A stretch of 64,000 bases of DNA from an uncultured Verrucomicrobiae bacterium (lineage in GTDB: Bacteria; Verrucomicrobiota; Verrucomicrobiia; Limisphaerales; UBA11358), in the NCBI GenBank assembly GCA_963738225.1, contig CAVTVR010000007.1:48018-112017 (forward strand), in the 5' to 3' direction. The position numbers and the translations under genes are program-made. The number at the start of each line of letters is the position of its first letter. Position 1 is the first letter of the stretch. The notes under the pieces are model-generated. The model searched no databases. It was given only the letters and a program-made list of their open reading frames with translations, and was not told where the DNA came from. Below, one piece after another: positions 37,791 to 63,862 of this stretch.

Positions 37791-37873
37791 CGTCGTATAT
37801 CGGTTAAGTTTTACGTTGCCGATGCAAAGCATCGCGTTCAAGCAGAGTGTCACTCACAATGGGAAATTCGACC

Positions 37874-38955: not shown

Positions 38956-39014
38956 CTCTTAAATTCAGGTAGGGTTGGCGCGCTACGCCGACCGGACGCC
39001 GCAGCGCGGCATCC

Positions 39015-40352
39015 CTACCGTTTCTTGTTCTTTGCCGCCGCTGCAATTTCAAAAACCTGTCTCACCGGCACGCCGGCTTTGTCCGCCAGCTTTTTGGCCG
39101 ATTCAAATTCCGGCGCGGCCTGCACCACTTTACCACCAAGTTTGCCAATTTTCACGGTCACATTTCCTAATGAGGTTTTGACCTCGGTGAACTCACGGCG
39201 CAGCTTGCGGCGTTCGGCAACCGTTTTGCGCACGCCGAACGCGGTCGCCTCGCGCAAAATCAATTCGGCAAATTTGTCGGCTTCGGCTTCCGCGCACAAA
39301 ACCGTGAGCAGCACGCCGGGCCGGTTCTTTTTCATCTGAATCGGCGTGTGGAAAACGTCCAGCGCGCCCGCCGCCAGCGCGGTTTCGACAAAGGCGCCGA
39401 GAATTTCGCCGGAGCAATCGTCCAGATTGGTTTCCAGCACGGCGACTTTGTCTGACTCCCAATCCAAACCAGGCGCGACAACTTTGGACTTTGGACTTTG
39501 GACTTTGGACAAGCCGCCAAGCACCGCGCGCAGCACGTTTGGCCGCGTTTTATTTTCGCGCGTGCCAAGGCCAAAACCGATTTTTTCGGCGACCAAATTT
39601 TCCATCGGGCCGAAACTCTCGACAAATTCCGCCAGCAGCGCCGCACCCGTGGGCGTGACCAGTTCGTGAGGTTCGTCGCATTGCGAAACGGGAATTTTCC
39701 GCGCGCCAAGAATCGCCAGCGTGGCCGGCGCGGGCACGGGAAATTTCCCGTGCGCGCAATCAATCCAACCGGTGCCTTCCACCACCGGCGAGGCGAACAC
39801 GCGCGGCTTGCCGAGCAGTTCCAGCGCGATGGCCGCGCCCACAATGTCAACGATGGAGTCCACCGCGCCGACTTCGTGGAAGTGAACTTCCGCTGGCGGC
39901 AGGCCGTGGATTTTTCCCTCCGCTTCGGCAATGCGCTGGAAGACGGCGATGGATTTCTGCTTCACCCACGGCGAAAGCTGGCTGCGGGATATGAGATGTT
40001 TTATTTCTGCGAAATTCCGTTGCCCGTCGTGAGCGTGATGCTTGATGCTTGATGCGTGACTTTCGTGGCCATGTTCATGCGCGTGGCCGTGCTCGTGAAA
40101 ATGAATTCCGCACGTGCTTTCGTGAACATGATGTTCATGTCCATGATCGTGATCGTGCGCGAGGTGGACATCAAATTTCACGCCGGCGATGGTGGATTTT
40201 TGCTGGCGCGAAATGTGGAGATGATAGCCGTCGAGCTTGAGTTTTTTCAACTCGCGTTCGAGACTGGCGGCGTCCACGCCAAGATCCAGCAATGCGGCGA
40301 TGAACATGTCGCCCGCGATGCCGCTGATGAGATCGAGATAGAGAATTTTCAT
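39015..40352 (-). CDS. larC: nickel-pincer cofactor nickel insertase LarC
   Basis: Trimmed to ATG 40352 (MKILYLDLISGIAGDMFIAALLDLG). His-rich stretch HDHDHGHEHHVHE...HEHGHAHEHGHE. Full-length LarC/DUF111 pattern. Confidence 0.9.
   Translation of the reverse strand: MKILYLDLISGIAGDMFIAALLDLGVDAASLERELKKLKLDGYHLHISRQQKSTIAGVKFDVHLAHDHDHGHEHHVHESTCGIHFHEHGHAHEHGHESHASSIKHHAHDGQRNFAEIKHLISRSQLSPWVKQKSIAVFQRIAEAEGKIHGLPPAEVHFHEVGAVDSIVDIVGAAIALELLGKPRVFASPVVEGTGWIDCAHGKFPVPAPATLAILGARKIPVSQCDEPHELVTPTGAALLAEFVESFGPMENLVAEKIGFGLGTRENKTRPNVLRAVLGGLSKVQSPKSKVVAPGLDWESDKVAVLETNLDDCSGEILGAFVETALAAGALDVFHTPIQMKKNRPGVLLTVLCAEAEADKFAELILREATAFGVRKTVAERRKLRREFTEVKTSLGNVTVKIGKLGGKVVQAAPEFESAKKLADKAGVPVRQVFEIAAAAKNKKR
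39484..39511. repeat. tandem heptamers TTGGACT x4 inside larC
   Basis: TTGGACT x3 plus TTGGACA. On the coding (minus) strand this reads AGTCCAA repeats and encodes SKVQSPKSKV. Confidence 0.85.
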
Positions 40353-40367
40353 TTGAAATTCATTTTG

Positions 40368-40450
40368 CCACGGATGGACACAGATTCGCACAGATGGAAA
40401 AGATTGCAGCTTCGAGAATGAATCTGTGTTTCATCTGTGTGAATCTGTGG
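40368..40450. repeat. CCACGGATGGACACAGAT-type inverted-repeat element
   Basis: CCACGGATGGACACAGATTCGCACAGATGG ... ATCTGTGTTTCATCTGTGTGAATCTGTGG. Lies between larB and larC and overlaps the last larB codons. Confidence 0.8.
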
Positions 40451-41195
40451 CCAGGGAATTGATCTGACTCGCGGCGTAACCCGCGCCAAAGCCGTTGTCA
40501 ATGTTCACCACCGTCAAGCCGCTGGCGCAACTGTTCAGCATGGCGAGCAGCGCGGCGATGCCGCCAAAACTCGCGCCGTAGCCGATGCTCGTCGGCACGG
40601 CGATGACCGGCCTGGCCACCAGTCCGGCGAGCACGCTTGGCAGCGCGCCTTCCATGCCGGCGACGGCCACGATGACATTCGCGCTTTGCAACAACTCCAT
40701 CCGCGCCAGCATCCGGTGCAGCCCGGCCACGCCGATGTCGTGAATGCGCTCGACGCGGTTGCCCATGATTTCGGCGGTGACGGCGGCTTCCTCGGCCACC
40801 GGCAAATCGCTGGTGCCGGCGCAGACGACGGCGATGAAGCCGGCGCGCTTGGGCAACGGTTTTTGCTCGATGGTCACACAGCGGGCAAGGTCGTGATGGA
40901 TCGCGCGCGGGAATTTTTTGCGAAGCGCGCGGGCGTGTTCGGCGGTGACGCGGGTGACCAGCACCGGCTGGCCGAGCGCAAAAAGTTTGGCGGCGATTTT
41001 GACGATCTGATCCGGCGTTTTGCCCGCGCCAAAAATAACTTCGGGAAAGTTTTTCCGGAGCGCGCGGTGCGTGTCCACCTGGGCAAAGCCGAGGTCCGCC
41101 ACTGGCGCGGCTTGAAATGCCTGCAAAACTTTTTCCCGCGGGATTATTCCCGCGCGAAATTGTTCGAGCAATTGAGTGGCCTCGCCGGTTGTCAT
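40431..41195 (-). CDS. larB: nickel-pincer cofactor biosynthesis protein LarB (AIR carboxylase-like)
   Basis: Trimmed to ATG 41195 (MTTGEATQLLEQF...). Shows VVCAGTSDLPVAEEA and AVAGMEGALPSVLAGL motifs. Confidence 0.87.
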   Translation of the reverse strand: MTTGEATQLLEQFRAGIIPREKVLQAFQAAPVADLGFAQVDTHRALRKNFPEVIFGAGKTPDQIVKIAAKLFALGQPVLVTRVTAEHARALRKKFPRAIHHDLARCVTIEQKPLPKRAGFIAVVCAGTSDLPVAEEAAVTAEIMGNRVERIHDIGVAGLHRMLARMELLQSANVIVAVAGMEGALPSVLAGLVARPVIAVPTSIGYGASFGGIAALLAMLNSCASGLTVVNIDNGFGAGYAASQINSLATDSHR

Positions 41196-41325
41196 GGCGT
41201 GACAATGCCGCACGAAATGCCCGTTGTCACGCGGGAAAACCCAGGCCGTTTCCGTTTTCCACGACTGCGCGAACAACGACTCGCCGCTTGACGACCGTTG
41301 TGAATGCAGTTCAAACTGGTTCACC

Positions 41326-42651
41326 ATGAATCCATTATTCCCGAAGCGACATCGCTTGGTTTTGCTGACCGCCATTTTTGCCGCGTTGAACACGGCGAGT
41401 TTGTTCGCTGTTGAATTCGAGTCCAAGCCGGACGATCCCTATTTCACCAAGTTTGAGCCGGTGAAAGCGCCGGCGCCCGCCGGCTTGCTGCTCCAAACTG
41501 GCGACCGTCTTGCGATCATCGGCGATTCCATCACCGAGCAGAAAATGTATTCGCGCATCATCGAGACGTATCTCACGGTTTGCGTGCCGGAACTGAAAAT
41601 CACCGCGCGCCAGTTCGGCTGGAGCGGGGAGACCGCCGAAGGTTTTTTGCATCGCATGACGAATGATTGCCTGCGCTTCCAGCCGACCGTTGCCACGCTG
41701 TGCTACGGGATGAACGACCATCGTTACCGCGCCTACGACGAGCCGACCGGCCAGTGGTATAGCAATAATTACTCCGCGGTGGCGTCCACATTAAAAGATT
41801 CCGGCGCGCGCGTCGTGCTGGGTTCGCCGGGCTGCGTGGGCAAAATTCCGGGCTGGGTCGGCGACCAAAAAGCGTCCGTCGAAGATTTGAATTTAAGCCT
41901 CTGTCACTTTCGGAACATTGACATCGAAATCGCAGCGCTGGAAAAAATCAATTTTGCCGACGTGTTTTGGCCGATGTTCACCGCCGGTTTCACCGCGCAC
42001 CAAAAATATGGAGCGGACTATGCCGTGTCGGGCCATGACGGCGTGCATCCCGGCTGGGCCGGACATCTTATCATGGCTTACGCTTTTCTGAAGGCGATGG
42101 GACTCGACGGTGATCTTGGCACCTTTACCGTGAATCTCGGCGCGGGCACGGCCACGGCGAGTTCCGGCCACACGGTGGACAGTTTTACCAACAACACGCT
42201 GACCATCACCAGCCGCCGGTATCCATTCTGCGCCGCTGGTCCATTGGACAATGACAACTCTATCCGCTCCGGCATGACGTTCGTGCCGTTCAACGCCGAA
42301 TTGAACCGGCTTAAATTAATTGTCATCGGCGGCGCCGCGCAAAATTATGCCGTGACGTGGGGCGATCAAACGCATGATTATTCCGCCGCGCAACTCGCCG
42401 CCGGCGTGAATCTCGCGGAGGATTTTGCGATCAATCCCTTTTCTGCCGCGTTTGCCAAAGTGGACGCCGCCGTCGCCGCAAAACAAAATTACGAGACGCG
42501 GCAGATCAAGGAATTGTTTCACGGGCCGGAAGGCAAGGCCGACGCCGACGCCACGGCCGCCTTGACCGAAAAAGTCCGCCAGCCGCTGGCCGATGCCATC
42601 GCCACCGCGTTCGTGCCGGTGACGCATACGATCCTGATCCAGCCGAAGTGA
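41326..42651 (+). CDS. secreted SGNH/GDSL-family hydrolase
   Basis: Trimmed to ATG 41326 (MNPLFPKRHRLVLLTAIFAALNTASLFA). Block I IIGDSITEQ, later GMNDH and DGVHPG. Confidence 0.73.
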   Translation: MNPLFPKRHRLVLLTAIFAALNTASLFAVEFESKPDDPYFTKFEPVKAPAPAGLLLQTGDRLAIIGDSITEQKMYSRIIETYLTVCVPELKITARQFGWSGETAEGFLHRMTNDCLRFQPTVATLCYGMNDHRYRAYDEPTGQWYSNNYSAVASTLKDSGARVVLGSPGCVGKIPGWVGDQKASVEDLNLSLCHFRNIDIEIAALEKINFADVFWPMFTAGFTAHQKYGADYAVSGHDGVHPGWAGHLIMAYAFLKAMGLDGDLGTFTVNLGAGTATASSGHTVDSFTNNTLTITSRRYPFCAAGPLDNDNSIRSGMTFVPFNAELNRLKLIVIGGAAQNYAVTWGDQTHDYSAAQLAAGVNLAEDFAINPFSAAFAKVDAAVAAKQNYETRQIKELFHGPEGKADADATAALTEKVRQPLADAIATAFVPVTHTILIQPK

Positions 42652-42757: not shown

Positions 42758-43705
42758 TCAGGTGCCGGTTTTTTTTCCGCTGGCGAAGTAGTCGAGATAC
42801 CGCACGAGTTGTTCCTTAATTTCCTTGCGCGGCACGATGGCGTCAATGAGGCCGTGTTCGAGCAGGAATTCGGCGGTTTGAAATCCGGGCGGCAGTTCGG
42901 CGTGGGTCGTGTCCTTGATGACGCGCGGGCCGGCAAAACCGATCATCGCGGCGGGTTCGGCGAGAATCAAATCGCCCAACGCGGCGTAGCTGGCCATCAC
43001 GCCGCCGTAGCTGTTGTTGGTCAGGACGCTGATGTAAGGGCAGACGCTGTTTGGCGTGGTAGGCGAGGGCGGCGGAGGTCTTGGCCATCTGCATCAGGCT
43101 GAACACGCCTTCCTGCATCCGCGCGCCGCCGCTGGTGGAAATGATGATGGCGGGCCAGGCCGCCTTCCGTGCCGCGTTCGATAAGGCGCGTCAGTTTTTC
43201 ACCGACAACGGAACCCATCGAGCCGCCCATGAAAGCAAAATCCATCACCCCCAGCGCGACGCGGTGCGCGCCGATTTTGCAGATGCCGGTGACCACGGCG
43301 TCCTGGAGCATGGTGGCCTTGCGGTCGCGTTCCAGTTTGCTTTTGTAGCTGGCGAATTTCAGCACGTCCACGCTGGTCATCTGGGCGTCCATCTCCTCGA
43401 AGGTGCAGGTTTCGACGAGGGAATGGATGCGTTCGCGCGAGCCGATGGGGAAATGATGCTGGCATTTGGGGCAGACCTTGAGGTTTTCGTCCAGTTCCTT
43501 GTCGTAAATCATCGTGCCGCACGACGGGCATTTCGTCCAGAGACCTTCGGGAATGTCGCGTTTTTTGGTCCGGGGCTTGCCGGTGTCCAGCTTCGGCTTG
43601 ACGGTGAATGCCGTATGCGTGTGCTGGATCGGCGGCGGCGTCAGCGCCGGCTCGATCTGAACAATGCCGCCAATTGTCTTCTTCGTGAAATGATGTGGTA
43701 TCCAT
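42758..43705 (-). CDS. accD: acetyl-CoA carboxylase carboxyltransferase beta subunit, at least three frame breaks
   Basis: Zn ribbon [26 protein letters not shown], then [26 protein letters not shown] and GFAGPRVI, spread over frames 43021-43512, 42843-43118 and 42758-43000. The N-terminal start is uncertain. Confidence 0.85.
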
Positions 43706-44580: not shown

Positions 44581-45427
44581 ATGGCGCGAGCATCTGCAAC
44601 AAATGAAACGACCGGCCAGGAAAAATTCGGGCGGTTTTACCTGCGCGAACAGCTCAACGCCGGCGGCATGTCGGAAATCTGGCTGGTGGCCGACGGGCGC
44701 GGCAAGCCATTCGCCCTGCGCAAACTCAAGCACGAGCTGCGGTTCAATTTCACAGCACGCCGGCGTTTCATGCGCGGCTGCGAAGTATTGTCGCAACTGA
44801 CCGAGAGCGATTACATCGTCGGCTACGTCGAACACGGCCGGGCGGAAGGCACCTGCTATCTGCTGATGGATTACGTCGAGGCGGAAAATCTTGAAGGAGC
44901 TTTACGCGCGGCAGGACCCGCTGCTGGCGGAACACGTGGCGCAGATTTTGATTGATGCCGCCACGGGCTTGAGCCACGTCCATGAGAGCGGCTACATGCA
45001 CCTGGATTTCAAGCCGGAAAACATTCTCATCACGCGCAACGCGGCGGTGCGGCTGATTGATTTTGACATGGCGCAGCCGATTCCCGAAAAGCCGGTGAAG
45101 TTTTCCAAGAATCCCGGCACGCCCGGCTACATGGCGCCGGAGCAGTTGAAACGCGAGCCGATAGACGCGCGCGTGGACATCTTTGCGTTCGGTGTCTCGG
45201 CGTATGAACTGCTGACGAACCACAAGCCGTTTCCCGGCGAAACTCCGGCGGAAATTCTCGCCGCGCAAATGGAGCCGACCGGGCCGGCGCCGCTGCGCGA
45301 ACACAATCCCGACGTGCCGCCGGCGCTGGAAAAAGTGGTTTTGAAATGTCTCGAACGCGACCCGGAACGCCGCTATCCGTTCTGCGGCGTGATGCTGCGC
45401 GAACTGCAAAACGCGCTGTATGTCTGA
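44581..45427 (+). CDS. Ser/Thr protein kinase (Hanks type), one frame break
   Basis: ALRKLK (catalytic Lys region), HLDFKPENILI, DFDMA, GTPGYMAPEQ. Frame change near 44890. Confidence 0.8.
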
Positions 45428-49837: not shown

Positions 49838-50464
49838 TCATTTATTTTCTAAATGCTTCAAAAATTCTTTGGTATTAATTCGTCTTTCAATTTCAAATAA
49901 CACATCTCGTTTAAGAGATTCAAAATCACAATCGTAATCTTGCTTGAATCCACAATGAGAACAAACCAGCGAAATTGGAGGATAATACTTACCCGGATTG
50001 AAACGTGCATTATTATTCAATTCGGATTTTAGTCGGCATTTACAACAATTTTGCCTCGGGCAAAATACTGACAATTGATCACTTATTTGATTTCCGACAT
50101 AGCTCCAATTCCATCGCACGCCAAAAATCTCATCATGGGTGTAATTATGCCAATCCAACTGCATCGGAATAATTGGTTGTTCATCGAACATTTTTACAAC
50201 GAACCAACAAAGCAAAGCCAGAATACAACCTCCAATTCCGAGCAAAATTAAACCCCATACTGGCCAAGTAATTGGTTTGGTTAGCCAACTTAGCCATCCC
50301 ATATGCCAAGAAGCAAGCAGTCCAAGAATAATTGCTCCAATAATAATCCAGCCAAGCCAATCTTTCCAAAATTTCGCTGCAGCTTCCCTCGTAAAAAACC
50401 AAAGCACCACAGATAACGGCAGACTCAATATCGAAGCCCAGCTTGCGTAATCTGAAAGTGTCAT
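49838..50464 (-). CDS. AT-rich orphan gene: N-terminal multi-TM domain plus C-terminal Cys4 zinc-ribbon-like domain
   Basis: ATG 50464 ([24 protein letters not shown]...). Four hydrophobic segments, then CPRQNCCKC...CSHCG. Composition is visibly far more AT-rich than the flanks. Confidence 0.6.
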
Positions 50465-50471
50465 AAAATCA

Positions 50472-51746
50472 TTAGACAAAAATCGTCTGTTCTCTCGCCG
50501 GACCGATGGACGCGATGAATAATTTCGCGTTGCGTCAATTCCGCGATCGCCTTCAAATACGCGCGCGCTTTCGGCGGCAGGTCGGCGAACTTGCGCGCCT
50601 TGTCCGTCGGCGTGCGCCAGCCTTCAAATTCCACATAGACCGGTTCACATTCGGCCAGCACCTGCGCGTCGTTCGGCACGAAATCGTATTGCTGCGTGCC
50701 GTGACGATACGCGACGCAAACTTTGATCGTCTCCACCGTGTCGAGGCCGTCGAGATTCGTGATGGCGAGGTCGTCAATGCCGTTGACCATCGTCGCGTGG
50801 CGCGTGGCGACGGAATCAAACCAGCCGCAGCGCCGCGCGCGTCCGGTCGTCGCGCCGAATTCGCGGCCCATGCCGTGCAGCAGGTCGGAAATTTCCGCGT
50901 TCTCCGTCGGCAACGGCCCTTCGCCGACGCGCGTGGTGTAAGCCTTCATCACGCCGACGACGCGATCCATGCGATGCGGCGGCACGCCCGAACCGGTGCA
51001 GGCGCCGCCCGCCGTCGTGTTCGATGAAGTGACGAACGGATACGTGCCGTGGTCAATGTCGAGGAACGTGCCTTGCGCGCCTTCAAACAAAATGTCCACG
51101 CCTGTCGCGCATCTTGTCGTGCAGCAAAACAACGGTGTTTGTGACGAACGGCGCGAGATATTTTCCGGCGGCGTTATATTCCGCGAAAACCTGACTTGAA
51201 CGAAAGCGGCTTGGCGCCGAGCGATTTCAGCACGGCGTTGTTTTCCTTGATGCGGGCGGAAAGTTTGGTTTCGAGGCGGGCCGGATCAACCAGATCGCCG
51301 ACGCGCAGACCGACGCGCGCGGCCTTGTCGCCATAAGCCGGGCCGATGCCGCGCTTGGTGGTGCCGATCTTATTTTTGCCCTTGAGCACTTCGCGCTGCG
51401 CGTCCAGTTCGCGGTGATAGGGCAGAACGACATGCGCCGTTTCGCTCAACACGAAATTCTTCGGACTGACCTTGACGCCGAGTTTTTTCAGCCCTTCGAT
51501 TTCCTCGACCAGGCCGATGGGGTCAACGACCACGCCGTTGCCGATGACGCAGAGTTTTTTCGGGCGCAGAATGCCGGACGGCACGAGGTGCAGGACGTAT
51601 TTCTTCTTGCCCAGCCAGACCGTGTGGCCGGCGTTGTTGCCGCCGGCGTAGCGGACGACGACGTCCGCCGACTCGGTGAGCACGTCAATGATTTTGCCTT
51701 TGCCTTCGTCGCCCCACTGGGCGCCGACCAGAATTGTGTTTGCCAT
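50472..51746 (-). CDS. purA: adenylosuccinate synthetase, three frame breaks
   Basis: ATG 51746 ([18 protein letters not shown]), then [45 protein letters not shown]. Shifts near 51195, 51108 and 50500. The corrected tail reads ...[18 protein letters not shown]. Confidence 0.92.
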
Positions 51747-51927
51747 AGATTTGTTTTTTCCACAGCGGCGCAGCAGCACCGCCCTACCGCCAACAATAAA
51801 AATCCCCGGACGAAAATCCGGGGCAAAGCGGCGGGGTCTTTGCGTGAAGAAATTAAGGAGGTTGCGCAATCATGTCAATTCCGCAAAGCAGTTGGCGCGT
51901 GACCTGCCGCCGAATTTTTTTTAGTCT

Positions 51928-54069
51928 ATGAAAATGAAATTACACCTTGTTGCGTTTTGCGTGGCGGCTTCGTTTCTCACCACCGCCGCCGCGGCCGAGC
52001 CGGCGTCTCCGCACAAATTCAGTGTGCAGACGAAAAATTTCTCCCTGACTTTTGAAGTCGGCGCCGACGGGCGGCTTTATCAACGTCCGATCGGAGCGGC
52101 GGGAGTTGATAAAAAATTGCAGCGGATTGATGAAAGTTATCCGCAGGCCGGGGACGGATATATTTGGGAGCCGGCGTTGCAAGTCATTCACGCCGATGGC
52201 AACACTTCCACGGCGCTGTCTTTTGATGGACTGACGCGAACGAATGACGCCGCCGGCCGCGAGGTGACGCAAATCAAATTGCACGATCCGGCTTACCCGC
52301 TCGAAGTTTTTTTGAACTTCCGGGCCGACCATGACCGGGATGTCTTGGAGCAGTGGACGGAAATTGTGAATCATGAATCCGGCGCGGTGACGCTGGAGCG
52401 CATGGCTTCCACCGCGCTGCTGCTGCCGGCGAAAAATGTCTATCTGACGCATTTTTTTGGTGACTGGGCGAAGGAAATGCTGAAGCCCATTACCGAACCG
52501 ATCACGCCAGGCACGAAAGTTTTGGATTCAAAAATCGGCGTGCGCGCGGAGCAGTTCCGCAACCCGTCGTTCGTGCTTTCGCTGGACGGACCGCCGGCGG
52601 AAAACAGCGGCCGCGTGCTGGCCGGTTCGCTGGAATGGTCGGGCAGTTTTCAGTGCGCCTTTGATGACAATGGCGAAAACATCCGCGCTTTGTGCGGCGT
52701 GAATCCGTTCGCGTCCGCGTATCATTTGAACCCGCAGGAAACTTTCACGACGCCGGTAATGATCTGGGTCTGGAGCGCGAACGGGCTCGGGGAAATGAGC
52801 CGGAATCTCCACCGCTGGGCGCGCGATTTCGGCTTGCGCGACGGCCACAAAACCCGCGCCGTGCTGCTGAATAATTGGGAGGCGACCGGCTTTGATTTCG
52901 ATTTCAACCGCATCGTCGGGCTTTTTGATCCGGCGAAGCAAATCGGCACGGAGTTGTTCCTGTTGGATGACGGCTGGTTCGGGAACAAATATCCGCGCGT
53001 GAACGACCATGCCGGTCTCGGCGATTGGCAGCCGAACCGCCAGCGCCTGCCCGATGGCCTGGCGCCGCTCGCCGCCGAAGCCGTCAAACGCGGCCTGCGG
53101 TTCGGCATTTGGATGGAGCCGGAAATGGTGAATCCCAAAAGCGAATTGTTTGACCAGCATCCCGACTGGGTGATCGCCCAGCCGAAACGCGAGCTGGAAT
53201 TGCAGCGCAACCAGCTCGTGCTGGATCTGACGCGCCCCGCCGTGCAGACGTTTGAGTGGCAGACCATCCAAAACATTCTGGGCGTGCCGGACATCAGCTA
53301 CGCGAAATGGGATTGCAATCGTTACCTCACACAGCCGGGCTCGTCGTATCTCGCGCCGGACCGGCAGTCGCACCTGTGGATTGATTATGTGAACGCGCTC
53401 TACGCGCTCATGGACAAAACCGCGAAATCGTTTCCCGACACGGAATTGATGCTGTGTTCCGGCGGCGGCGGACGCGCGGATTACGGCGCGCTGAAATATT
53501 TCCACGAGTTCTGGCCAAGCGACAACACCGACCCGACGGTGCGCGTGCCGATGCAATGGGATTATTCCTATTTCTTCCCGGCGATGGCCCTGGCCAGCCA
53601 CGTGACGCATTGGGGCAACCGCCCGATGCACTTTGCCTGCAGCGTGGCGATGAGCGCGCGTTTCGGCATGGATCTTGATCTGACCAAGTTGTCGGTTGAA
53701 GACAAAGCCATTTGCGCCGGCGCCATCAGCGCCTACAAACAAATCCGTGAAATTGCCCAGCTCGGCGATTTATACCGGCTGGAAAATCCGCATGAAAATT
53801 TTCGCGGCGCCCTGAATTTCGTTTCGCCCGACCGCGCGCGCGCCGTGGTGTTTGCGTTTCAACTAAAAGACGGTCCATCGTCGCCGGTGCATCCGCAGGG
53901 ACTTGATCCGGCAAAAAATTATACCGTCCACGAATTGAATCCCGCACCGGGACGCGCCGCGATACCGCAGGAAGGTCAAGCCGTCACCGGCGCGGAACTA
54001 ATGCGTGATGGCATTGTTCCCTCGTGTGCGCACGCGGTTGAAGCCTGCGTCATCGAATTGAGTTCGTAG
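51928..54069 (+). CDS. GH36 alpha-galactosidase, secreted
   Basis: Signal peptide MKMKLHLVAFCVAASFLTTAAAA. ELFLLDDGWF, GLRFGIWMEPEMVNP and YAKWDCNRY motifs of GH36. Confidence 0.87.
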   Translation: MKMKLHLVAFCVAASFLTTAAAAEPASPHKFSVQTKNFSLTFEVGADGRLYQRPIGAAGVDKKLQRIDESYPQAGDGYIWEPALQVIHADGNTSTALSFDGLTRTNDAAGREVTQIKLHDPAYPLEVFLNFRADHDRDVLEQWTEIVNHESGAVTLERMASTALLLPAKNVYLTHFFGDWAKEMLKPITEPITPGTKVLDSKIGVRAEQFRNPSFVLSLDGPPAENSGRVLAGSLEWSGSFQCAFDDNGENIRALCGVNPFASAYHLNPQETFTTPVMIWVWSANGLGEMSRNLHRWARDFGLRDGHKTRAVLLNNWEATGFDFDFNRIVGLFDPAKQIGTELFLLDDGWFGNKYPRVNDHAGLGDWQPNRQRLPDGLAPLAAEAVKRGLRFGIWMEPEMVNPKSELFDQHPDWVIAQPKRELELQRNQLVLDLTRPAVQTFEWQTIQNILGVPDISYAKWDCNRYLTQPGSSYLAPDRQSHLWIDYVNALYALMDKTAKSFPDTELMLCSGGGGRADYGALKYFHEFWPSDNTDPTVRVPMQWDYSYFFPAMALASHVTHWGNRPMHFACSVAMSARFGMDLDLTKLSVEDKAICAGAISAYKQIREIAQLGDLYRLENPHENFRGALNFVSPDRARAVVFAFQLKDGPSSPVHPQGLDPAKNYTVHELNPAPGRAAIPQEGQAVTGAELMRDGIVPSCAHAVEACVIELSS

Positions 54070-55496: not shown

Positions 55497-56048
55497 TCAC
55501 ACCACTTCGCGATACACATCGGGATGCGGACGCGAAATCACCACTGCGTTCACCAGCACGCCGGCGTCGGCAAGAACTGCGCGACCAGCCGCGACACCGG
55601 ATTGCACGGACGAAACATCACCCGTCATCGAGCAAAACGCTTTTCCGCCCATCGCCATCGCGAGACGGACTTCGAGCAATTGCACATTGGAAGTTTTGGC
55701 CACGGCATCGGCGGCTTGGATCAACGTGGCAACGTTGAACGATTCAATGACGCCGAGCGCGCCGTCCGTCTCCGCCGGTTGCGAGCGGCCCAGCGCGACA
55801 AAAACATCGGGATGCAAATTCGCGATGACGAAGCTGTCAATCAAACAGCCGCCCGCGTCCACGCAGCCGGCTTCGACGGCGGCGGTCACGGCGGCGGTGT
55901 CGCCGCCGATGAGCACCATGTATTTGCCGGAACAAATCGAGCGCGACAAAATCAGCCGCACGTTGCCGGCTTTGAGCATCGTGTCAGCCACCTGGAAGCC
56001 GGCGGCGATGCTCGACAGTTCAATCAATCCAACAGATTTTTCGGCCAT
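55497..56048 (-). CDS. pduT: BMC-T shell protein, tandem BMC domains, PduT-like
   Basis: Two BMC (PF00936-type) halves: MAEKSVGLIELSSIAAGFQVADTMLKAGNV... and ...ALGVIESFNVATLIQAADAVAKTSNV... The segment SRSICSGKY matches the PduT 4Fe-4S-ligating Cys region. Confidence 0.9.
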   Translation of the reverse strand: MAEKSVGLIELSSIAAGFQVADTMLKAGNVRLILSRSICSGKYMVLIGGDTAAVTAAVEAGCVDAGGCLIDSFVIANLHPDVFVALGRSQPAETDGALGVIESFNVATLIQAADAVAKTSNVQLLEVRLAMAMGGKAFCSMTGDVSSVQSGVAAGRAVLADAGVLVNAVVISRPHPDVYREVV

Positions 56049-56052
56049 AAAA

Positions 56053-57367
56053 TTATTTCTCCAAAATGATTTGTTTATCGTTCGCCTCGCGCACCATGCC
56101 GCTCATCGGCGCATGCAGAATCGCACCGAGCGCGTTCGGCGCAGGTTCGCCGATGATTTGTCCCGCGCTCACGCGGTCGCCAGTCTTTGACTTTTGAAAG
56201 GCACGGCGTGCCGGCGCTTTGCTTGAGCGGCAGGATGAGGCGGCTTGAGGAAATTTCCTGACGCACGAGCGGCGCGGGCAAATCGTAATCGAGGACGTGC
56301 AATTTTTTGGCGAGCGATTTGATCGGCACGCGGCGGCCATCCATCATCGCGTGCGGCTTGGGGTTCATCGGGCCGGTCCACTTGATTTGTTTGGCGCGCA
56401 TGACGGCCTTCGCATCGTCGCAGGCTTCTTTCGGAAATAATTCTTCCGGGCACGCATACAACGTGCAAAGTCCGCAAGAGCAGCACATCGCGGCCCATTG
56501 ATTGAAATAATCCGCGCCCGTGCCGGTGAACGCCAGCGTGCGCATGACTTGATGCGGCTCGACCGCGTAACCGAGCAGATAGCGCGGACAAAATTCCGTG
56601 CAATAGCGGCATTGGTCGCACGCGGATTTGCCAATGCCCGCCTGCGCTTTCGGCGGCTTAAGCTTGCGCTCGATGACGTGATGCGTGCGCGGCAAAATCA
56701 CCACGCCAGTGGAAGTTTTCGTGACCGGCGTGTCGAGATCGTCCGTGTGCGTGCCCATCATCAAACCGCCGATGACCAGCACCGGATCGTCCGTCGTGAG
56801 ACCGCCGGCGTATTCGATGCACTCGCGAAACGTCGTGCCGATGGGCACGCGCAGCGTCGCGGGCGATTTCACCGCGCCGGCAATCGTGAGCATTTTGTGC
56901 GTGAGCGGCTTGCCGTCGTGCGCGGCGGCAATGTTCACAAACGTCTCGACGTTGTTGACGACCACGCCAACGGCGATGGGAATGCCGCCGGGCGGAATCA
57001 ATTTGCCCGTGACGTTGTAAACCAAATCGTATTCGTCGCCGGCCGGATAATAATCGCCAAGCAACTGGACGCGGACATTCGTGCCTTTGCTCGCGGCCTG
57101 GACGGCTTCGACGGCGTGTTTCTTTTTGCCTTTGACGCCGATGACGCCTTCCTTCGCGCCGACAGCCTCGATGGCGAGTTGCATGCCGCGCACGAGTTCG
57201 GCGGCGCTTTCTTCCATCGTCACCGCGTCCTTGTGCAGGAGCGGTTCGCACTCCGCGCCGTTGGCGATGACGGTTTCGGCCTTGGCGTTGAGCTTGACGT
57301 GCGTCGGAAATCCGCCGCCGCCCGCGCCCACGACGCCGGCCTGCCTGACTTTTTCTGCTAAATTCAT
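56053..57367 (-). CDS. pduS: PduS/RnfC-like flavin- and 4Fe-4S-containing oxidoreductase, one frame break near the 3' end
   Basis: GAGGGGFPTHVKL, an SLBB-like middle region, and two ferredoxin motifs (CDQCRYCTEFCP, CCSCGLCTLYACP). After a shift near 56190 the C-terminus reads GDRVSAGQIIGEPAPNALGAILHAPMSGMVREANDKQIILEK. Confidence 0.85.
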
Positions 57368-57389
57368 GTTAAATCAAAAATATTCTTAA

Positions 57390-57523
57390 CCACGGATGGA
57401 CACAGATGGACACAGATAAAAACAAAACGCAGAGGCGCAGAGGCCGCCAAGAGTCGCTGAGAAAATTTCCCCTGCGAGTCTCTGCGTTTTTCCCCATCTG
57501 TGTTTATCTGTGTCCATCTGTGG
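57390..57523. repeat. nested inverted-repeat element of the CCACGGATGGACACAGAT family
   Basis: Outer arms CCACGGATGGACACAGATGGACACAGATAAA / TTTATCTGTGTCCATCTGTGG. Inner stem AAAACGCAGAG...CTCTGCGTTTT. Fills the deoR-pduS gap. Confidence 0.85.
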
Positions 57524-57530
57524 TTCAAAT

Positions 57531-58314
57531 TCATTCTGCTCCATTGGCGTGCGGTGCCGGAGCCAAGATCACTTCCACACCGCGTTCGCGCAATGCCGTG
57601 ATTAAATCCTGCGGCGCTTTGCTGTCGGTGACAATCGTGTCCACCATGTCGAGTCCGCACAGCGGCGATACGGACTGCCGGCCAAATTTCGTGTGGTCGA
57701 GGCAGAAAATAATTTTCTGCGCGGCTTTCAGCATCGCGCGCTGGATGTCAATCAACAGCGCGTGCGAATTGGTGATGCCTTCGAGCGTGATGCCGCCGGC
57801 GCTCATGATCGCCACGTCGGCGCGCATTTTGGAAAACGCCTCGACCGTCATCGGCCCGACCAGCACGCCGAGCCGCGGATAAATCACGCCGCCCGCCAAA
57901 ATCACTTCCACTTTGTTCGCCGAGGCAAAAAGATTGGCCACCGGCAGAGAGTTCGTCACGATCTGCGGCGCTTTTTCTTCGAGATGCCGCGCGACGTGAT
58001 AGACCGTCGTGCCGGCATCCAAAATCACGCTTTGATTTGCGCCGATCAATTCCGCGCACGCTTTGCCGATCGCTTCTTTTTCCGAAAGCTGATGCGTGTC
58101 GCGCGACGGAGAATGCAAATTCATCCGTCTTCGGCGTGACGATGCGCGCGCCGCCGTGCGTGCGCCGCAAATTCCCTGCCGCTTCAAGCGTCGACAAATC
58201 GCGCCGCACGGTGGAAACCGACGCTTCGACGTGCTTGGAAAATTCTTCCAGCGACGCAAATTCAACACGTTGAAGATAGTCTTCAATGCGATGTTTGCGC
58301 TCTTCTGCCGTCAT
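57531..58314 (-). CDS. DeoR-family transcriptional regulator, one frame break
   Basis: N-terminal wHTH (FSKHVEASVSTVRRDLSTLEAAGNLRRTHGGA) in frame 57748-58314. DeoR C-terminal sugar-phosphate sensor domain (SVILDAGTTVYHVARHL...IMSAGGITLEG...) in frame 57531-58286. Shift near 58120. Confidence 0.87.
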
Positions 58315-58402: not shown

Positions 58403-59081
58403 ATGTCTGTTGCTGCTCCAGCACCACATCGCGCCGTCGTCGAACATTTGGTTCGACAGGCGGTTTATGCGCGTCTTGGCAAGCCGTTGCCGCGCACTGC
58501 GAGCGGCGCCGAATCCGCTCGTCGTCAACGTCAGCGCGCGTCATTGTCATCTCACGCCGGAAGCGGTCGAGGCGCTTTTTGGCAAAGGCCACCAGCTCGG
58601 CGTCCACAAATGGCTTTATCAGGACGGCCAGTTCGCGGCGAAGGAAACCGTCACGCTCATCGGCCCGCGCAGCCGCGTGATTTCCAATTTGCGCATCCTC
58701 GGCCCGTGCCGGAGTCTGAATCAAGTCGAACTCGCTTACACGGATTCCATCGCGCTCGGTTTCGACATTCCGCTGCGCGCGTCCGGCAACATCAAGGACA
58801 CGCCCGGCGCGATGCTGATGGGCCCGGCGGGATTTTTTGAGATGCCGGATGGCGTGATCCGCGCGTTGCGGCACGTCCACATGAGCCCGACGGACGCGGA
58901 TTTTTACGGCGTGAAGCACGGCGACAACATGAAGTTAAAGATCGGCGGCGATTGCGGCATCATTCTCGACAAAATGCTTTGCCGCGTGGACAAGAGTTTC
59001 AAACTGGAAGTCCACATTGACACCGACGAAGGCAACGCCTGCAATTTGCAGCCCGACACGCCGGTCGAACTTGTAAAATAA
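58403..59081 (+). CDS. pduL: phosphate acyltransferase PduL (BMC-associated phosphotransacylase), probable frame break near the 5' end
   Basis: The catalytic part is intact in frame 58410 (VVNVSARHCHLTPE..., RHVHMSPTDA, HIDTDEGNA). Frame 58403 supplies MSVAAPAPHRAVVEHLVRQAVYARLGK. An unbroken alternative is ATG 58467-59081. Confidence 0.85.
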
Positions 59082-59120: not shown

Positions 59121-59405
59121 ATGAGCGAAGCAATAGGAATGATTGAAACCAAGGGCTACGTCGGCAGCGTCGAAGCCAGCGATGCCATGGTCAAGGCCGC
59201 CAACGTCACGCTGGTCAAAACCATCGCCATCGGCGGCGGCCTGATCACCGTCATCGCGCAGGGCGACGTCGGCAGCATCAAGGCCGCCGTGGACGCCGGC
59301 GCAAAAGCCGCCGCCAAGGTCGGCGAACTCGTCAGTTCGCACATCATCGCGCGCCCGCACGATGAACTGCTCGCCGCCTTTCTCGGCAACGGCGTGAAAA
59401 AATAA
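59121..59405 (+). CDS. BMC-H shell protein (PduA/CcmK-type hexamer) 1
   Basis: MSEAIGMIETKGYVGSVEASDAMVKAANVTLV...GDVGSIKAAVDAGAKAA...SHIIARPH, the canonical PF00936 pattern. Confidence 0.93.
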   Translation: MSEAIGMIETKGYVGSVEASDAMVKAANVTLVKTIAIGGGLITVIAQGDVGSIKAAVDAGAKAAAKVGELVSSHIIARPHDELLAAFLGNGVKK

Positions 59406-59437: not shown

Positions 59438-59717
59438 ATGTCAAAACAAGCTGTTGGAATGATTGAATGCAAAGGGTTCTGCGCCGCCGATGGAAGCCGC
59501 CGACGCCGCGCTCAAGTCCGCGAACGTCCACATCACCGGCTGGGAAAAAGTCGGCAGCGGCTACGTCACCGTGTTTTTCCGGGGCGACGTCGCCGCCGTC
59601 AAGGCCGCGACCGATGCCGGTGCGGCGGCCGCCGCGCAAGTCGGCTCGGTCGTCAGCGTCCAGGTGATCCCGCGCCCGCATGACGGTTTGAGCGGGCTTG
59701 GAAAATGGCTCGAATGA
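59438..59717 (+). CDS. BMC-H shell protein 2, one frame break
   Basis: [14 protein letters not shown] (frame 59438), then [51 protein letters not shown]...VIPRPH (frame 59463). Shift near 59482. Confidence 0.85.
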
Positions 59718-59815: not shown

Positions 59816-61007
59816 ATGAAAATTCTCGTCGCCAATATCGGTTCGACGTCGCTCAAGTGGCGGCTGTTCGATTTTGCGAACAGCGCCGAACGCCTTTTGC
59901 ACAAAGGCGGCTTCGAGCGCGTCACCGATTATCCCAAGGCGATTGAAGATTGTTTGACAGAACTAAAAAACGCGAACGCGGTTCAAAATGAAAACGAATT
60001 GAGCGCCGTCGGTTTCAAAACCGTCATCGCCAAAAACGTCACCGGCTGCGTGCGCCTGGACGAAAAAGTTTTGCAGGCGATGACCGATTACAACGGCCTC
60101 GCGCCCGCGCACAATCCGCCCTACATCACCGGCATCAAATTGTTTTCGCAGCGGATGCCGAAAGTTCCGCTCATCGGACTTTTTGAAACGGCGTTCCATC
60201 AATTCGCACCCGAAGCGTCGCAACGCTATGCCGTGCCGGATGCGTGGTTGAACATCGGCGTGCGCCGCTGGGGGTTTCATGGCGCGAGCCACAAGTTCAT
60301 CGCCGAGCGCTCGGCGGAGTTGCTTGGGCGTCCCGATATCGCCGAACGCGCGCGGCAGCTTTATGTCAATGATGGCGAGGCGAAAATTTCCGGCGCGCCG
60401 TTGCGCGTGATCTTCGTGCCATCTCGGCGGCAGTTCGAGCGTGACGGGAATTTTAAATGGCGCATCCATCGGCACGAGCATGGGCATGAGCCCACAATCC
60501 GGGCTGCCGCAGAATAACCGCGTCGGCGATTTGGACGCCGAAGCGATTCCGTATGCGCTGAAAACTTTGGGGATTTCGGTTGAAGAGGCGCAGCGGCAAT
60601 TGACGAAAGAATCCGGACTGAAAGGCTTGAGCGGCGTGTCGAATGACGTTCGCGATATTTCTGACGCGGCGACCAGGGGAAATAAAAACGCGCAGCTCGC
60701 ACTTGACGTTTTTGTCGCGAGCGCACGGCATTGGATTGGCAGTTATTTTTTGCAATTGAACGGGTCGGACGCGATTGCGTTCACCGCCGGCACCGGCGAG
60801 AACCGCGCAGAACTGCGCGCCGCCATTTGCGCAAACCTGGAAAATCTCGGCATCAAGATTGACGCGGAAAAAAACAGTTCCTGCCGCGCGACGGAAGCGG
60901 TCATCAGCACAGCGGATTCGCCGGTGAAGATTTTTGTGATTCCCACGAACGAGGAACTTGTCGTGGCGCGCGAAGCGAAGCGATTTTTGGAATCGAAGAA
61001 AAATTGA
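59816..61007 (+). CDS. ackA: acetate kinase, one frame break
   Basis: MKILVANIGSTSLKW, FHGASHKF. After a shift near 60414 it reads CHLGGSSSVTGILNG...FTAGTGEN...IPTNEELVVARE. Confidence 0.9.
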
Positions 61008-61045: not shown

Positions 61046-61327
61046 ATGCCACAAGCCATTGGAATGATCGAAACACGCGGACTCGTCGCCCTTGTCGAGG
61101 GCACGGACGCAATGCTCAAGGCCGCCAACGTCGAGCTTATCGGCCCGATGACGCAGGTCGGCAACGCGCTCGTCACGGCGTGCGTCGTTGGCGATGTCGC
61201 CGCCGTGAAGGCCGCGACCGACGCCGGCGCGCAGGCCATCAAAGCCATCAAGGGCGAACTGGTCAGCGTCCACGTCATCGCCCGTCCGCACGCGGACGTG
61301 GAAGCGGTGTTGCCGAAGAAGAAGTAG
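61046..61327 (+). CDS. BMC-H shell protein 3
   Basis: MPQAIGMIETRGLVALVEGTDAMLKAANVELI...[16 protein letters not shown]...VHVIARPH. Confidence 0.93.
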   Translation: MPQAIGMIETRGLVALVEGTDAMLKAANVELIGPMTQVGNALVTACVVGDVAAVKAATDAGAQAIKAIKGELVSVHVIARPHADVEAVLPKKK

Positions 61328-61408: not shown

Positions 61409-61720
61409 ATGTTCCTCGCCAAAGTCGAAGGCCAGGTGGTCGCCACCAAGAAAGACCCGAACATGTCGGGCCGCAAACTGCTTTTGTTGCGCCCGCAGCT
61501 CGTGGACGAAAAAGACCCGACGAAGTTTCGTTCGGGAGCCAACACCATCGTGGCCGTGGACGCGCTCGGCGCCGGCGAAGGCGAAATGGTTTTGTTTTGC
61601 CAAGGCAGTTCCGCGCGGCTTGCGCCCGGCATGAAGGACGCGCCCGTGGACGCCGTCATCATCGGCCTGGTGGACAGCGTGGATGTTTTCGGAAAAGAAA
61701 TTTTCAGCGCGAAAGTCTGA
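61409..61720 (+). CDS. BMC-P vertex protein (EutN/CcmL family) 1
   Basis: MFLAKVEGQVVATKKDPNMSGRKLLLLRP...VAVDALGAGEGEMVLFCQGSSAR...DAVIIGLVDSVD, the PF03319 pattern. Confidence 0.9.
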   Translation: MFLAKVEGQVVATKKDPNMSGRKLLLLRPQLVDEKDPTKFRSGANTIVAVDALGAGEGEMVLFCQGSSARLAPGMKDAPVDAVIIGLVDSVDVFGKEIFSAKV

Positions 61721-61737: not shown

Positions 61738-61989
61738 ATGAACAATTCTGAAAAAGCACAATCTGGATTGAATCTCATTAAGGAAGCAATCCTAGGATAC
61801 TTTCATGATCACCCAAACGGTGTGACAAATGCAGAAATTGTTCGGGAATTGAAGCTTGAATCTGATTTTGAAGGCGAGAATCACAACTATCTTTCGTGGT
61901 CTGTGCTTGGACTTCTTGTTAACGATGTGAAAATTCGGTATGAGCGGCGAGGACGCAGCCGCTGTTACTTTTTAGCCAATAAGTTATGA
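61738..61989 (+). CDS. AT-rich small ORF, possible winged-helix protein, inside the BMC operon
   Basis: ATG 61738, 83 codons (MNNSEKAQSGLNLIKEAILGYFHDHPNGVTNAEIVRELKLES...). About 40% G+C by hand count against clearly GC-rich flanks. Its stop overlaps the aldehyde dehydrogenase ATG (ATGA). Confidence 0.5.
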   Translation: MNNSEKAQSGLNLIKEAILGYFHDHPNGVTNAEIVRELKLESDFEGENHNYLSWSVLGLLVNDVKIRYERRGRSRCYFLANKL

Positions 61990-63488
61990 GCGCCGTGAAC
62001 GAAACTTTAATCCGTGACGTGGTGGCCGAGGTGCTCGGCAAGCTGGGCAGCAACGCGACTGCGACTGCCAAACCCGCTCCTGCTTCGGCACCGAAATCGG
62101 ATTCATGCGGTTGCGGCACAAAAAAAACTTCTGCGACGAACGTCGCCTTGCGCGGCAAGTTCGGAGTGTTTCAGGATGCGAACGAAGCCTGCGCCGCCGC
62201 ACAGGAAGCGTATTTGCAGTTGAAACAGAAGGGTGTCGAGGCGCGCCGCAAAATTGAAAACATCGTCAAGACGCTCGCCGAAAAAAATGCCGAGGCGTGG
62301 GGCAAACTCGAACTTGATGAAACAAAAATTGGCCGGCTCGACCACAAGATCGCCAAGCTGCAAATCATCAAGCTTGTGCCCGGCGTGGACTGGTTGCGGC
62401 CCGACGCGCGCAGCGGCGATCATGGTATCACGCTGGAAGAATTCACGCCGTTCGGCGTCGTCGGCTGCGTCACGCCCAGCACGCATTCGATTCCCACGAT
62501 GAGCGGCAACATCGTGAACATCGCCGCCGCCGGTAATGCGATGGTCTTCAATCCGCATCCGGGCGCGTCGCGTTGCGCCACCGCCGCCGTGCGCGCCTAT
62601 AACGAAGCAATTTATCGCGAGACGGAAATTGAAAACATCGCATGTGTCATCGAAAAGCCGACGCTCGATTCGTTCAGCGCGATTTGCAAAAACGAAAACA
62701 CGCGGCTGCTGCTCGTCACCGGCGGACCGATGGTGGTGAAGGCCGCGATGCAGACCGGCAAGCGCGCGATTTGCGCGGGGCCGGGAAATCCGCCTGTTTT
62801 TGTGGACGACACCTGCTGTCTGATACGTGCGGCGAAGGCGATCATTTCCGGCGCGGCGTTTGACAACAATCTGCTGTGCATCGGCGAAAAGGAAGTTTTT
62901 GTGCTCGATTACATCGCGGATAAATTGATGCAAAAAATGTCCGAGAACGGCGCGGTGAAATTAAATTCCGCGCAGCTCGACCGGCTGACCAAGGCGGCAT
63001 TCACTTACAAGGAAGGCCAGGGCAGCGGTTGCGCGCACGCGAGCGTGAACAAGGATTTCATCGGCAAAGATCCATCTGTTTTGGCACAGTCGGCGGGAAT
63101 CAATTTGCCGCCCGGCACGCAGCTTTTGTTCGCCGAGACCGACGCGAAACATCCGTTCGTTGAAGAAGAACAGATGATGCCGTTTTTGCCGATCGTGCGC
63201 GTGAAAAGCGTCGAGGAAGGCATCGAACGCTCGCTCGATGCGGAACACGGTTACAAGCATACGGCCGTCATCCATTCGCATGACGTGGAAAACATCACCG
63301 CGATGGCGCGTGCGCTGGACACGACAATTTTTGTGAAGAACGGCACGAGCATGGCCGGTCTCGGTCTCGGCGGCGAAGGTTATTTGAGCTATTCCATCGC
63401 CACGCCGACGGGCGAAGGCATCACGAACCCGCGCACGTTCACGCGCATCCGCCGGTGCGTGATGGTGGATAATTTGAGGATTTATTAG
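61986..63488 (+). CDS. CoA-acylating aldehyde dehydrogenase (PduP/EutE-like) with N-terminal encapsulation-peptide-like extension
   Basis: ALDH core with FDNNLLCIGEKE (catalytic Cys) and ...EEEQMMPFLPIV... The N-terminus NETLIRDVVAEVLGKLGS is followed by an Ala/Pro/Ser-rich linker. Confidence 0.92.
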   Translation: MSAVNETLIRDVVAEVLGKLGSNATATAKPAPASAPKSDSCGCGTKKTSATNVALRGKFGVFQDANEACAAAQEAYLQLKQKGVEARRKIENIVKTLAEKNAEAWGKLELDETKIGRLDHKIAKLQIIKLVPGVDWLRPDARSGDHGITLEEFTPFGVVGCVTPSTHSIPTMSGNIVNIAAAGNAMVFNPHPGASRCATAAVRAYNEAIYRETEIENIACVIEKPTLDSFSAICKNENTRLLLVTGGPMVVKAAMQTGKRAICAGPGNPPVFVDDTCCLIRAAKAIISGAAFDNNLLCIGEKEVFVLDYIADKLMQKMSENGAVKLNSAQLDRLTKAAFTYKEGQGSGCAHASVNKDFIGKDPSVLAQSAGINLPPGTQLLFAETDAKHPFVEEEQMMPFLPIVRVKSVEEGIERSLDAEHGYKHTAVIHSHDVENITAMARALDTTIFVKNGTSMAGLGLGGEGYLSYSIATPTGEGITNPRTFTRIRRCVMVDNLRIY

Positions 63489-63574
63489 CCACAGATGAAC
63501 ACAGATGAAACACAGATAAAAATGCAAAGCAGATCGTTTGGGCATATCTGTGTTTCATCTGTGTCAATCTGTGG
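63489..63574. repeat. inverted-repeat element of the CCACAGATG...CACAGAT family
   Basis: CCACAGATGAACACAGATGAAACACAGATAAAAA ... ATATCTGTGTTTCATCTGTGTCAATCTGTGG. Lies between the aldehyde dehydrogenase and BMC-P2. Confidence 0.85.
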
Positions 63575-63583
63575 CTTGAACCT

Positions 63584-63862
63584 ATGCAATTAGCGCGCGT
63601 CGAAGGCAACATCGTGGCGACCCGGAAACATCCGAGTCTCAATGCGTGGCGTTTGGTGATCTGCCAGCCGATTGGCAAGAGCGGTGAAACTGAAGGCGCG
63701 CCGATCATTGCAATTGATTCGCACGGCGCAGGCATGCATCAGCAGGTGGTAATTTCGTCGGATGGGATCGCAGCGCGCAAGGCGGTCGGCGTGGACAAAA
63801 GTCCGGTGCGCTGGCTGGTCACCGGCATTGTGGATGAATCCGAACCGGGAAAAAGAATTTGA
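63584..63862 (+). CDS. BMC-P vertex protein (EutN/CcmL family) 2
   Basis: MQLARVEGNIVATRKHPSLNAWRLVICQP...IAIDSHGAGMHQQVVISSDG... Confidence 0.88.
   Translation: MQLARVEGNIVATRKHPSLNAWRLVICQPIGKSGETEGAPIIAIDSHGAGMHQQVVISSDGIAARKAVGVDKSPVRWLVTGIVDESEPGKRI

Follow-up and report, generated by a model that had tools for sequence, protein, structure and literature searches.

A PduS/PduT-like gene pair in a verrucomicrobial microcompartment locus and its probable role in regenerating NAD+

The gene pair and its predicted iron-sulfur clusters

The stretch of DNA considered here, 64,000 nucleotides (nt) from an uncultured Verrucomicrobiae bacterium and called the window throughout, carries on its reverse strand two adjoining genes, one for a flavoprotein resembling PduS and one for a bacterial microcompartment (BMC) shell protein resembling PduT, with a gap of only 4 nt between them (56053 versus 56048). 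We think that the two probably act together as a module that takes electrons from NADH inside a protein-shelled organelle and passes them out through the shell, and the case for this begins with what the pair itself contains:

56053 to 57367, reverse strand: PduS-like (MNdh) gene, 437 amino acids (aa) after removal of one extra base
about 56927 to 57349, reverse strand: Complex1_51K domain of the PduS-like gene (Pfam PF01512, E 1e-46)
about 56753 to 56890, reverse strand: SLBB domain of the PduS-like gene (Pfam PF10531)
about 56438 to 56623, reverse strand: two 4Fe-4S motifs of the PduS-like gene (Pfam Fer4_17 / PF13534, 4Fe-4S dicluster)
56183 to 56185, reverse strand: +1 frameshift site in the PduS-like gene, AAAGACTGG where relatives have AAAG-TCGG
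about 56071 to 56187, reverse strand: C-terminal RnfC_N barrel of the PduS-like gene (PF13375), in the shifted frame
55932 to 55934, reverse strand: codon of Cys39, putative pore 4Fe-4S ligand of the PduT-like protein, in SRSICSGKY / ICSGKY
55497 to 56048, reverse strand: PduT-like (BMC-T^SE) tandem-BMC shell protein, intact, 183 aa (PF00936, E 6e-42, two stretches)

The order of domains in the first gene, namely PF01512, PF10531, the 4Fe-4S dicluster and a C-terminal PF13375, is the four-domain permuted layout of MNdh, which is the name that Sutter et al. (PNAS 2024; PMC11626177) gave to the PduS homolog when they renamed the PduT homolog BMC-T^SE. A preliminary description of this DNA had pointed to one sequence segment and two ferredoxin motifs in 56053-57367, and these are present as written, with GAGGGGFPTHVKL at residues 14-26 of the translation, CDQCRYCTEFCP at residues 250-261 and CCSCGLCTLYACP at residues 295-307, and with Pfam in agreement. 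Aligned over its full length with annotated Salmonella PduS, the protein is 41% identical, and both the GAGGGGFP FMN/NADH loop and all eight cysteines (250/253/256/260 and 295/298/301/306) are invariant. The cysteines are likewise unchanged in 84 of 84 loci from relatives, the set onto which we mapped nine proteins of the locus by tblastn and from which two relatives, L001 and L003/L004, were read with gene annotation. The suspicion that the spacing of the second motif, CxxCxxCxxxxCP, might be aberrant was rejected, the spacing in Salmonella PduS being identical.

The best matches of the repaired protein among solved structures are RnfC chains (7zc6_C, 9eri_C and 8ahx_C; E 2e-56 to 7e-43), and the alignment spans the FMN/NADH domain, the SLBB domain, both 4Fe-4S motifs and the permuted barrel. 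The first three of these elements are shared with RnfC and NuoF-type subunits alike; the barrel, which is N-terminal in RnfC, is C-terminal in the PduS-like protein, a circular permutation, and RnfC docks on a membrane complex whereas the PduS-like protein is paired with a shell protein. In addition, the 14-residue N-terminal extension of Salmonella PduS is missing from the protein described here, which would be compatible with its being recruited by docking directly to its shell partner.

The second gene had been described beforehand as a tandem BMC protein in which SRSICSGKY corresponds to the region of PduT that holds the cluster-binding cysteine, and this stands up well. Pfam finds two BMC domains, and the protein matches PDB entry 3nwg at E 7e-48 and the PduT structures 3n79, 3vcd and 3pac at E of about 1e-40 over their full length, with 41-50% identity to solved PduT-type structures and 41% to Salmonella PduT. 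Cys39 aligns with Cys38 of wild-type Salmonella PduT, with the cysteine of 3nwg (vCpGKY) and with the engineered C38S site of 3n79. The conservation of cluster ligands, which the preliminary description had wanted checked by alignment, is thus seen for both proteins, the eight cysteines of one and the pore cysteine of the other aligning with Salmonella PduS and PduT and with the RnfC and PduT structures. The Salmonella genes are adjacent too, in the same order, S then T.

The residues around the pore cysteine are a point at which we would depart a little from the literature. A CP(G/S)K pore motif has been called universal (PMC11626177) and Salmonella PduT has CPGK; the protein encoded in the window keeps the cysteine, glycine and lysine, and does not match that consensus. 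Indeed, ICSGKY or a near variant is found in the 78 relatives read at the pore position, and CSGK is what every adjacent shell gene read across the 84 loci carries, with 77 motifs complete and a further one truncated where its contig stops; it recurs in 120 of 120 close homologs. Among representatives at 50% identity the tally is CPGK 64, CSGK 13, CPGR 10 and CAGK 5, with about 30 that lack the cysteine. The published consensus is descriptive of the surroundings and not of the ligand itself, and judging from these homologs it looks too narrow and should be relaxed to C-x-G-(K/R).

The surrounding locus and the search for B12-dependent enzymes

The preliminary description placed the pair behind deoR, on the strand opposite to an operon of shell and enzyme genes, and the annotation of the region agrees, with deoR upstream on the reverse strand and a forward operon that runs from PduL to BMC-P:

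57385 to 57530, reverse strand: palindromic repeat element of 146 nt that separates the PduS-like gene from deoR (folded as RNA, -79.4 kcal/mol with z -11.2)
57531 to 58314, reverse strand: DeoR-family regulator, directly upstream of the pair (Pfam DeoRC)
58403 to 59081, forward strand: PduL-type phosphotransacylase, which opens the divergent operon (Pfam PTAC, E 1e-68)
59121 to 59405, forward strand: BMC-H shell protein (Pfam BMC)
59438 to 59717, forward strand: second BMC-H shell protein, its frame shifted by a surplus base at 59490 (open reading frame (ORF) translations, alignment gaps against three relatives, tblastn)
59816 to 61007, forward strand: acetate kinase, broken in two by a surplus base at 60412 (both ORFs match Pfam Acetate_kinase)
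61046 to 61327, forward strand: third BMC-H shell protein (Pfam BMC)
61409 to 61720, forward strand: BMC-P vertex protein (Pfam EutN_CcmL)
61986 to 63488, forward strand: acylating aldehyde dehydrogenase (AldDH; Pfam Aldedh, 80% identity to L001 AldDH over the full length)
63584 to 63862, forward strand: second BMC-P vertex protein (Pfam EutN_CcmL), after which the operon leaves the window

DeoR, PduL, acetate kinase, AldDH and multiple BMC-P genes are traits of the Planctomycetes-Verrucomicrobia microcompartment (PVM) type, and the nearest relatives are metagenome-assembled genomes of Limisphaerales or 'subdivision 3'. The same set is found in the PVM of Planctomyces limnophilus (Erbilgin et al. 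2014, via PMC4207490), where several BMC-P genes are also present, and the aldolase that belongs to that system is found in the relatives. In those relatives the DNA that corresponds to the sequence beyond position 64000, where the operon leaves the window, holds one more BMC-P gene and a class II aldolase (PF00596) and then unrelated genes (L001, L003 and the synteny of 36 loci); the aldolase ends the syntenic operon in L001, in L003 and in most relatives. No exact copy of the window's PduT-like protein turned up, and relatives with 80-94% identity stand in for the DNA past the window's edge.

The classical role of PduS would give the pair quite another purpose, in which the flavoprotein reduces cob(III)alamin and cob(II)alamin so that adenosylcobalamin is regenerated for a B12-dependent enzyme, with PduT in support. 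This is a natural thought for a protein 41% identical, from end to end, to one annotated as 'cobalamin reductase PduS', and the Salmonella protein has such activity in vitro according to literature cited in PMC4207490 and PMC11626177. In Salmonella, however, the pair shares its operon with PduCDE, PduGH, PduO and the alcohol dehydrogenase PduQ, and the window contains none of these. The preliminary description had seen no B12-dependent enzyme there, and we agree: Pfam finds no diol or glycerol dehydratase, ethanolamine ammonia-lyase, reactivase or adenosyltransferase in about 57 ORFs spanning the whole window, and tblastn at E<=1e-3 with Salmonella PduC/D/E/G/H/O and E. coli EutB/C gives no match in the window or in the 84 related loci (1.28 Mb). 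In the DNA so covered, a hidden B12 enzyme is rejected on both searches. Nor does a dehydratase lie just beyond the window's edge in the syntenic relatives, which had been raised as something that would undo the argument; there the signature enzyme is the class II aldolase, which is B12-independent. With PMC11626177 also arguing that any role in B12 metabolism is indirect at best, we regard cobalamin reduction as highly improbable for this pair, and return to electron export below.

The palindromic element between deoR and the PduS-like gene belongs to a small hairpin family with copies at 57385-57530, 63485-63583, about 40369-40449 and 28153-28169. The hairpins are long and perfect, their arms are built of periods of about 10 nt, CACAGATG(G/A)A, and 11 matches to the motif are found in the window against 0.04 expected. 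Two copies have RNA folds of -79.4 and -54.3 kcal/mol, each with z of about -11, and the second copy separates AldDH from BMC-P. Hairpins occur at the same sites in L070, L023, L024, L012, L032 and L022; L001 and L003 lack the element and have 3-20 nt between deoR and PduS. The family resembles repetitive extragenic palindromes or miniature inverted-repeat transposable elements, and it may serve as a terminator or insulator.

Split reading frames in the pair and its neighbours

The preliminary description treated 56053-57367 as one gene. Its PduS-type content stands, and the single ORF does not, since 1315 nt is not a multiple of three and the stretch is read in two frames. The frame that opens at 57367 stops at 56075 after an out-of-frame, arginine-rich tail, and the barrel continues in the ORF at 56053-56340, its sequence …GDRVSAGQIIGEPAPNALGAILHAPMSGMVREANDKQIILEK being encoded in this separate frame, which ends at 56053. 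On the shifted-frame fragment alone PF13375 scores 24.1 bits against a cutoff of 25.6, and the fragment aligns to the N-terminal barrel of RnfC. Matching the protein by tblastn splits it into residues 1-394 in frame -1 and residues 390-437 in frame -2, and DNA alignment with L070, L014, L005 and L001 places one extra base at about 56184, which turns the last 45 or so residues into the out-of-frame tail.

Taken at face value, this would mean that the module is dead in this strain, a real +1 frameshift having removed the C-terminal barrel and left a pseudogene beside an orphan shell protein. The extra base is there in the assembly, and 82 of the 84 relatives have a PduS gene that reads through in a single frame, intact orthologues being 437 aa long. 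The rest of the region speaks for a different explanation. Within 8.5 kb, five genes have one extra base each, outside homopolymer runs: deoR at about 58107, between its helix-turn-helix and sensor domains; pduL at about 58504; BMC-H2 at 59490; ackA at 60412; and the PduS-like gene. The insertions in ackA and BMC-H2 were placed against three relatives and that in the PduS-like gene against four, those in deoR and pduL by tblastn with L001 proteins, DeoR being matched in two pieces in frames -2 and -3 and PduL likewise in two pieces. Further away, purA falls into two neighbouring ORFs that differ in frame (50461-51132 and 51174-51869), and there are probable fragments only of fmt (30483-31211), accD (43021-43512), yggS (27585-28073) and a protein kinase gene (44891-45427). 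An organism in which all of these were broken is unlikely, and in the PduS-like gene the codon usage (G+C content at third codon positions 0.74) and the downstream reading frame are still fully conserved.

At least five other genes of the window, purA included, are split in like manner, so the break in the PduS-like gene most probably reflects faulty assembly and not a pseudogene, and we consider true loss of the module in this strain quite improbable. A programmed frameshift was judged unlikely on the same grounds. The window seems to derive from an assembly rich in insertion errors, and with such an insertion-prone, unpolished signature, pseudogene calls anywhere in it are unsafe.

Probable NAD+ regeneration by electron export

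The idea that PduS and PduT homologs might serve electron transfer outside B12 metabolism is not ours. Axen et al. 2014 (PMC4207490) noted homologs with conserved cysteines in B12-free GRM1 loci, a glycyl radical enzyme type of microcompartment, and suggested electron shuttling. Sutter et al. then surveyed more than 7,000 loci, finding a PduS homolog in 2,172, a PduT homolog adjoining it in 97% of these, and 361 loci without an alcohol dehydrogenase; their model of the complex that MNdh forms with BMC-T^SE puts about 7-9 Å between cofactors, and the purified Clostridium botulinum GRM1 pair shows NADH-dependent reduction of its Fe-S clusters by electron paramagnetic resonance (PMC11626177). PVM is explicitly among the non-B12 hosts that they list, with 20 occurrences of the pair, 18 of them in satellite loci (PMC11626177), against 285 PVM loci counted by Sutter et al. 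2021. The pair in the window has in common with the C. botulinum module a four-domain flavo-FeS protein with permuted RnfC barrel, an adjoining tandem-BMC protein with a pore cysteine, an acylating AldDH alongside and no B12 enzyme. It differs in its pore motif, CSGK against the stated CP(G/S)K, and in lying within the main locus behind deoR, where 18 of the 20 published PVM pairs are satellites; and the published pair has been characterised biochemically, whereas ours is known from its sequence.

How usual this placement is can be read from the relatives. At E<=1e-10 there are 3798 homologs of the PduT-like shell protein; the best 120 are 79-94% identical and come from Verrucomicrobia where named. 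A scan found 304 species-representative genomes with a relative of the PduS-like protein, and the best 80 of these are mostly labelled Verrucomicrobiota (Limisphaerales, 'subdivision 3', Opitutia), with a minority that carry other labels and have the same locus. The 84 loci are arranged as follows:

36 loci: window-like arrangement, with deoR, pduS and pduT divergent from PduL…AldDH…aldolase II
5 loci: pair immediately following the aldolase
16 loci: pair on its own, flanked on each side by 8 kb or more of unrelated genes
27 loci: contig too short for decision, one of them still deoR-linked

The pair is thus within the main PVM locus in 41 of the 57 decidable loci of this verrucomicrobial clade, and the shell gene adjoins the PduS gene in 78 of the 84, three of the other six having a contig end at the PduS gene or no more than about 250 nt from it. 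This answers a doubt of the preliminary description as to whether such pairing is standard for PVM loci, which in this clade it is. On the worry that homologous pairs might commonly occur in genomes without shell genes, the outcome is likewise favourable to the proposal: the pair stands beside PVM shell genes in the two annotated relatives, tblastn with PVM gene queries links it to the locus in 41, and elsewhere it occurs as a satellite pair within the same lineage. A further satellite pair lies between RNase III and glmS in L088, and L044 (10001-11314), like L045, has a PduS homolog with 8-10 kb of downstream flank and no recognisable adjoining PduT-like gene, a rare exception to adjacency.

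From the domain content, ligands, adjacency and synteny seen here, the empty searches for B12 enzymes and the annotation of L001, L003 and L004, in whose locus there is no alcohol dehydrogenase, together with the NADH-driven cluster reduction published for the C. botulinum complex, a pathway can be proposed. Class II aldolase, seen only in the relatives, would release lactaldehyde inside the shell, and the acylating AldDH would oxidise it to lactyl-CoA with reduction of NAD+ to NADH, this enzyme being the presumed source of the NADH that the module handles. The PduS-like flavoprotein would re-oxidise this NADH at its FMN and pass the electrons through its two 4Fe-4S clusters to a third, predicted to sit in the central pore of the PduT-like trimer with the three Cys39 residues as its ligands. 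From there they would go to a cytoplasmic acceptor, with NAD+ regenerated without any cofactor crossing the shell and without an alcohol by-product. By analogy, this pair presumably works as the C. botulinum complex does; the cytoplasmic acceptor is itself an inference. In the P. limnophilus model NAD+ is instead recycled by a locus gene of the lactate/malate-dehydrogenase family (PMC4207490); the two annotated relatives of the window are without such a gene, and have PduS/PduT instead.

We accordingly read the two genes as the MNdh/BMC-T^SE module of a PVM fucose/rhamnose microcompartment in a Limisphaerales-like verrucomicrobium, which would regenerate NAD+ by exporting electrons, and, as the sequence predictions hold and there is published biochemistry on a homolog, we put the probability of this at roughly 0.78. 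The proposal of the preliminary description, that the pair shuttles reducing equivalents across the shell of an aldehyde-oxidising organelle, is supported by the ligands, the lack of a B12 enzyme and the PVM linkage. NADH re-oxidation was published in 2024 and is the leading model, to which this locus adds another, unstudied member; that the same hypothesis was reached independently from the bare sequence, with all of its sequence-level predictions holding here, amounts to confirmation.

The electrons could of course be meant for something else, such as import to reduce lactaldehyde or another lumenal substrate, repair or insertion of Fe-S clusters, or a redox sensor that gates the pore. PMC4207490 relays earlier proposals of this kind for PduT, along with one in which PduS stands in for a missing alcohol dehydrogenase; the direction of electron flow in vivo is hypothetical, and AlphaFold docking is ambiguous as to the binding face. 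The two annotated PVM loci, however, show no Fe-S or radical enzyme for which electrons or cluster repair would be required, the only redox step they encode reduces NAD+ and so creates a stoichiometric need for an electron sink, and the published complex is reduced by NADH (PMC11626177). A purpose of this other sort therefore seems unlikely to us.

Several points weigh against the export of electrons from NADH as we have set it out, and it is right to have them together. The signature aldolase is outside the visible window, the operon running off at 64000. The putative pore cysteine is followed by serine where the published consensus has proline, and cluster binding is a prediction. The function of this particular pair rests on that of its homologs and the external acceptor is a postulate, half of the published AlphaFold docking solutions put MNdh on the outer face of the shell, so that its topology comes by indirect arguments, and the PduS-like gene is interrupted as assembled and may be truly inactivated in the strain. 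Lastly, no third gene recurs beside the pair in the 35 satellite or short-flank loci, so that conserved neighbours give no pointer to an acceptor; a LutA-like ORF is beside it in only 4 of these 35.

What the window adds to the published picture is new and minor, namely the +1 insertion in the PduS-like gene, the placement of the pair in the main locus of this clade and the CSGK pore motif. Specialists gain from it a modest further detail: a large and mostly uncultured clade of Verrucomicrobiota has the module inside its main PVM locus and no alcohol dehydrogenase in that locus, which makes the clade a natural test case for a metabolosome sustained by electron export alone. Rather tentatively, and at less than even odds, we would go further and suggest that the module is fixed in the main PVM locus behind deoR and, because the locus has no alcohol dehydrogenase, is the sole route of NAD+ recycling; in that event the organelle would need an acceptor outside it, probably a respiratory one, and would make no propanediol, with a CSGK pore variant whose redox properties possibly differ from those of CPGK.

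A few other genes deserve mention. The lutABC lactate-utilisation genes adjoin the pair in L003/L004 (11304-14112), in L019 (8829-9545) and in three other satellite loci, which fits lactate as a product of the compartment. In the window itself, larE-like (NAD_synthase family), larC (Ni_insertion) and larB (AIRC) genes lie in a row at 38044-41426 on the reverse strand; together they serve to mature the nickel-pincer cofactor of lactate racemase, which may matter should the PVM pathway end in lactate. A respiratory cluster like alternative complex III occupies 32408-37853 on the reverse strand, made up of a NapC/NirT-like multihaem cytochrome c, a membrane subunit of the NrfD family, a Fer4_11 subunit and a pair of mono-haem cytochromes c; it points to a respiratory lifestyle, which could be the ultimate sink for exported electrons. 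Finally, a GH36 alpha-galactosidase, a GH2 glycosidase and an FGGY sugar kinase are encoded at 51928-54069, 10150-12222 and 6996-8693, respectively, consistent with a polysaccharide-degrading verrucomicrobium, and a fucose isomerase and GH35 are found near the locus in relatives.

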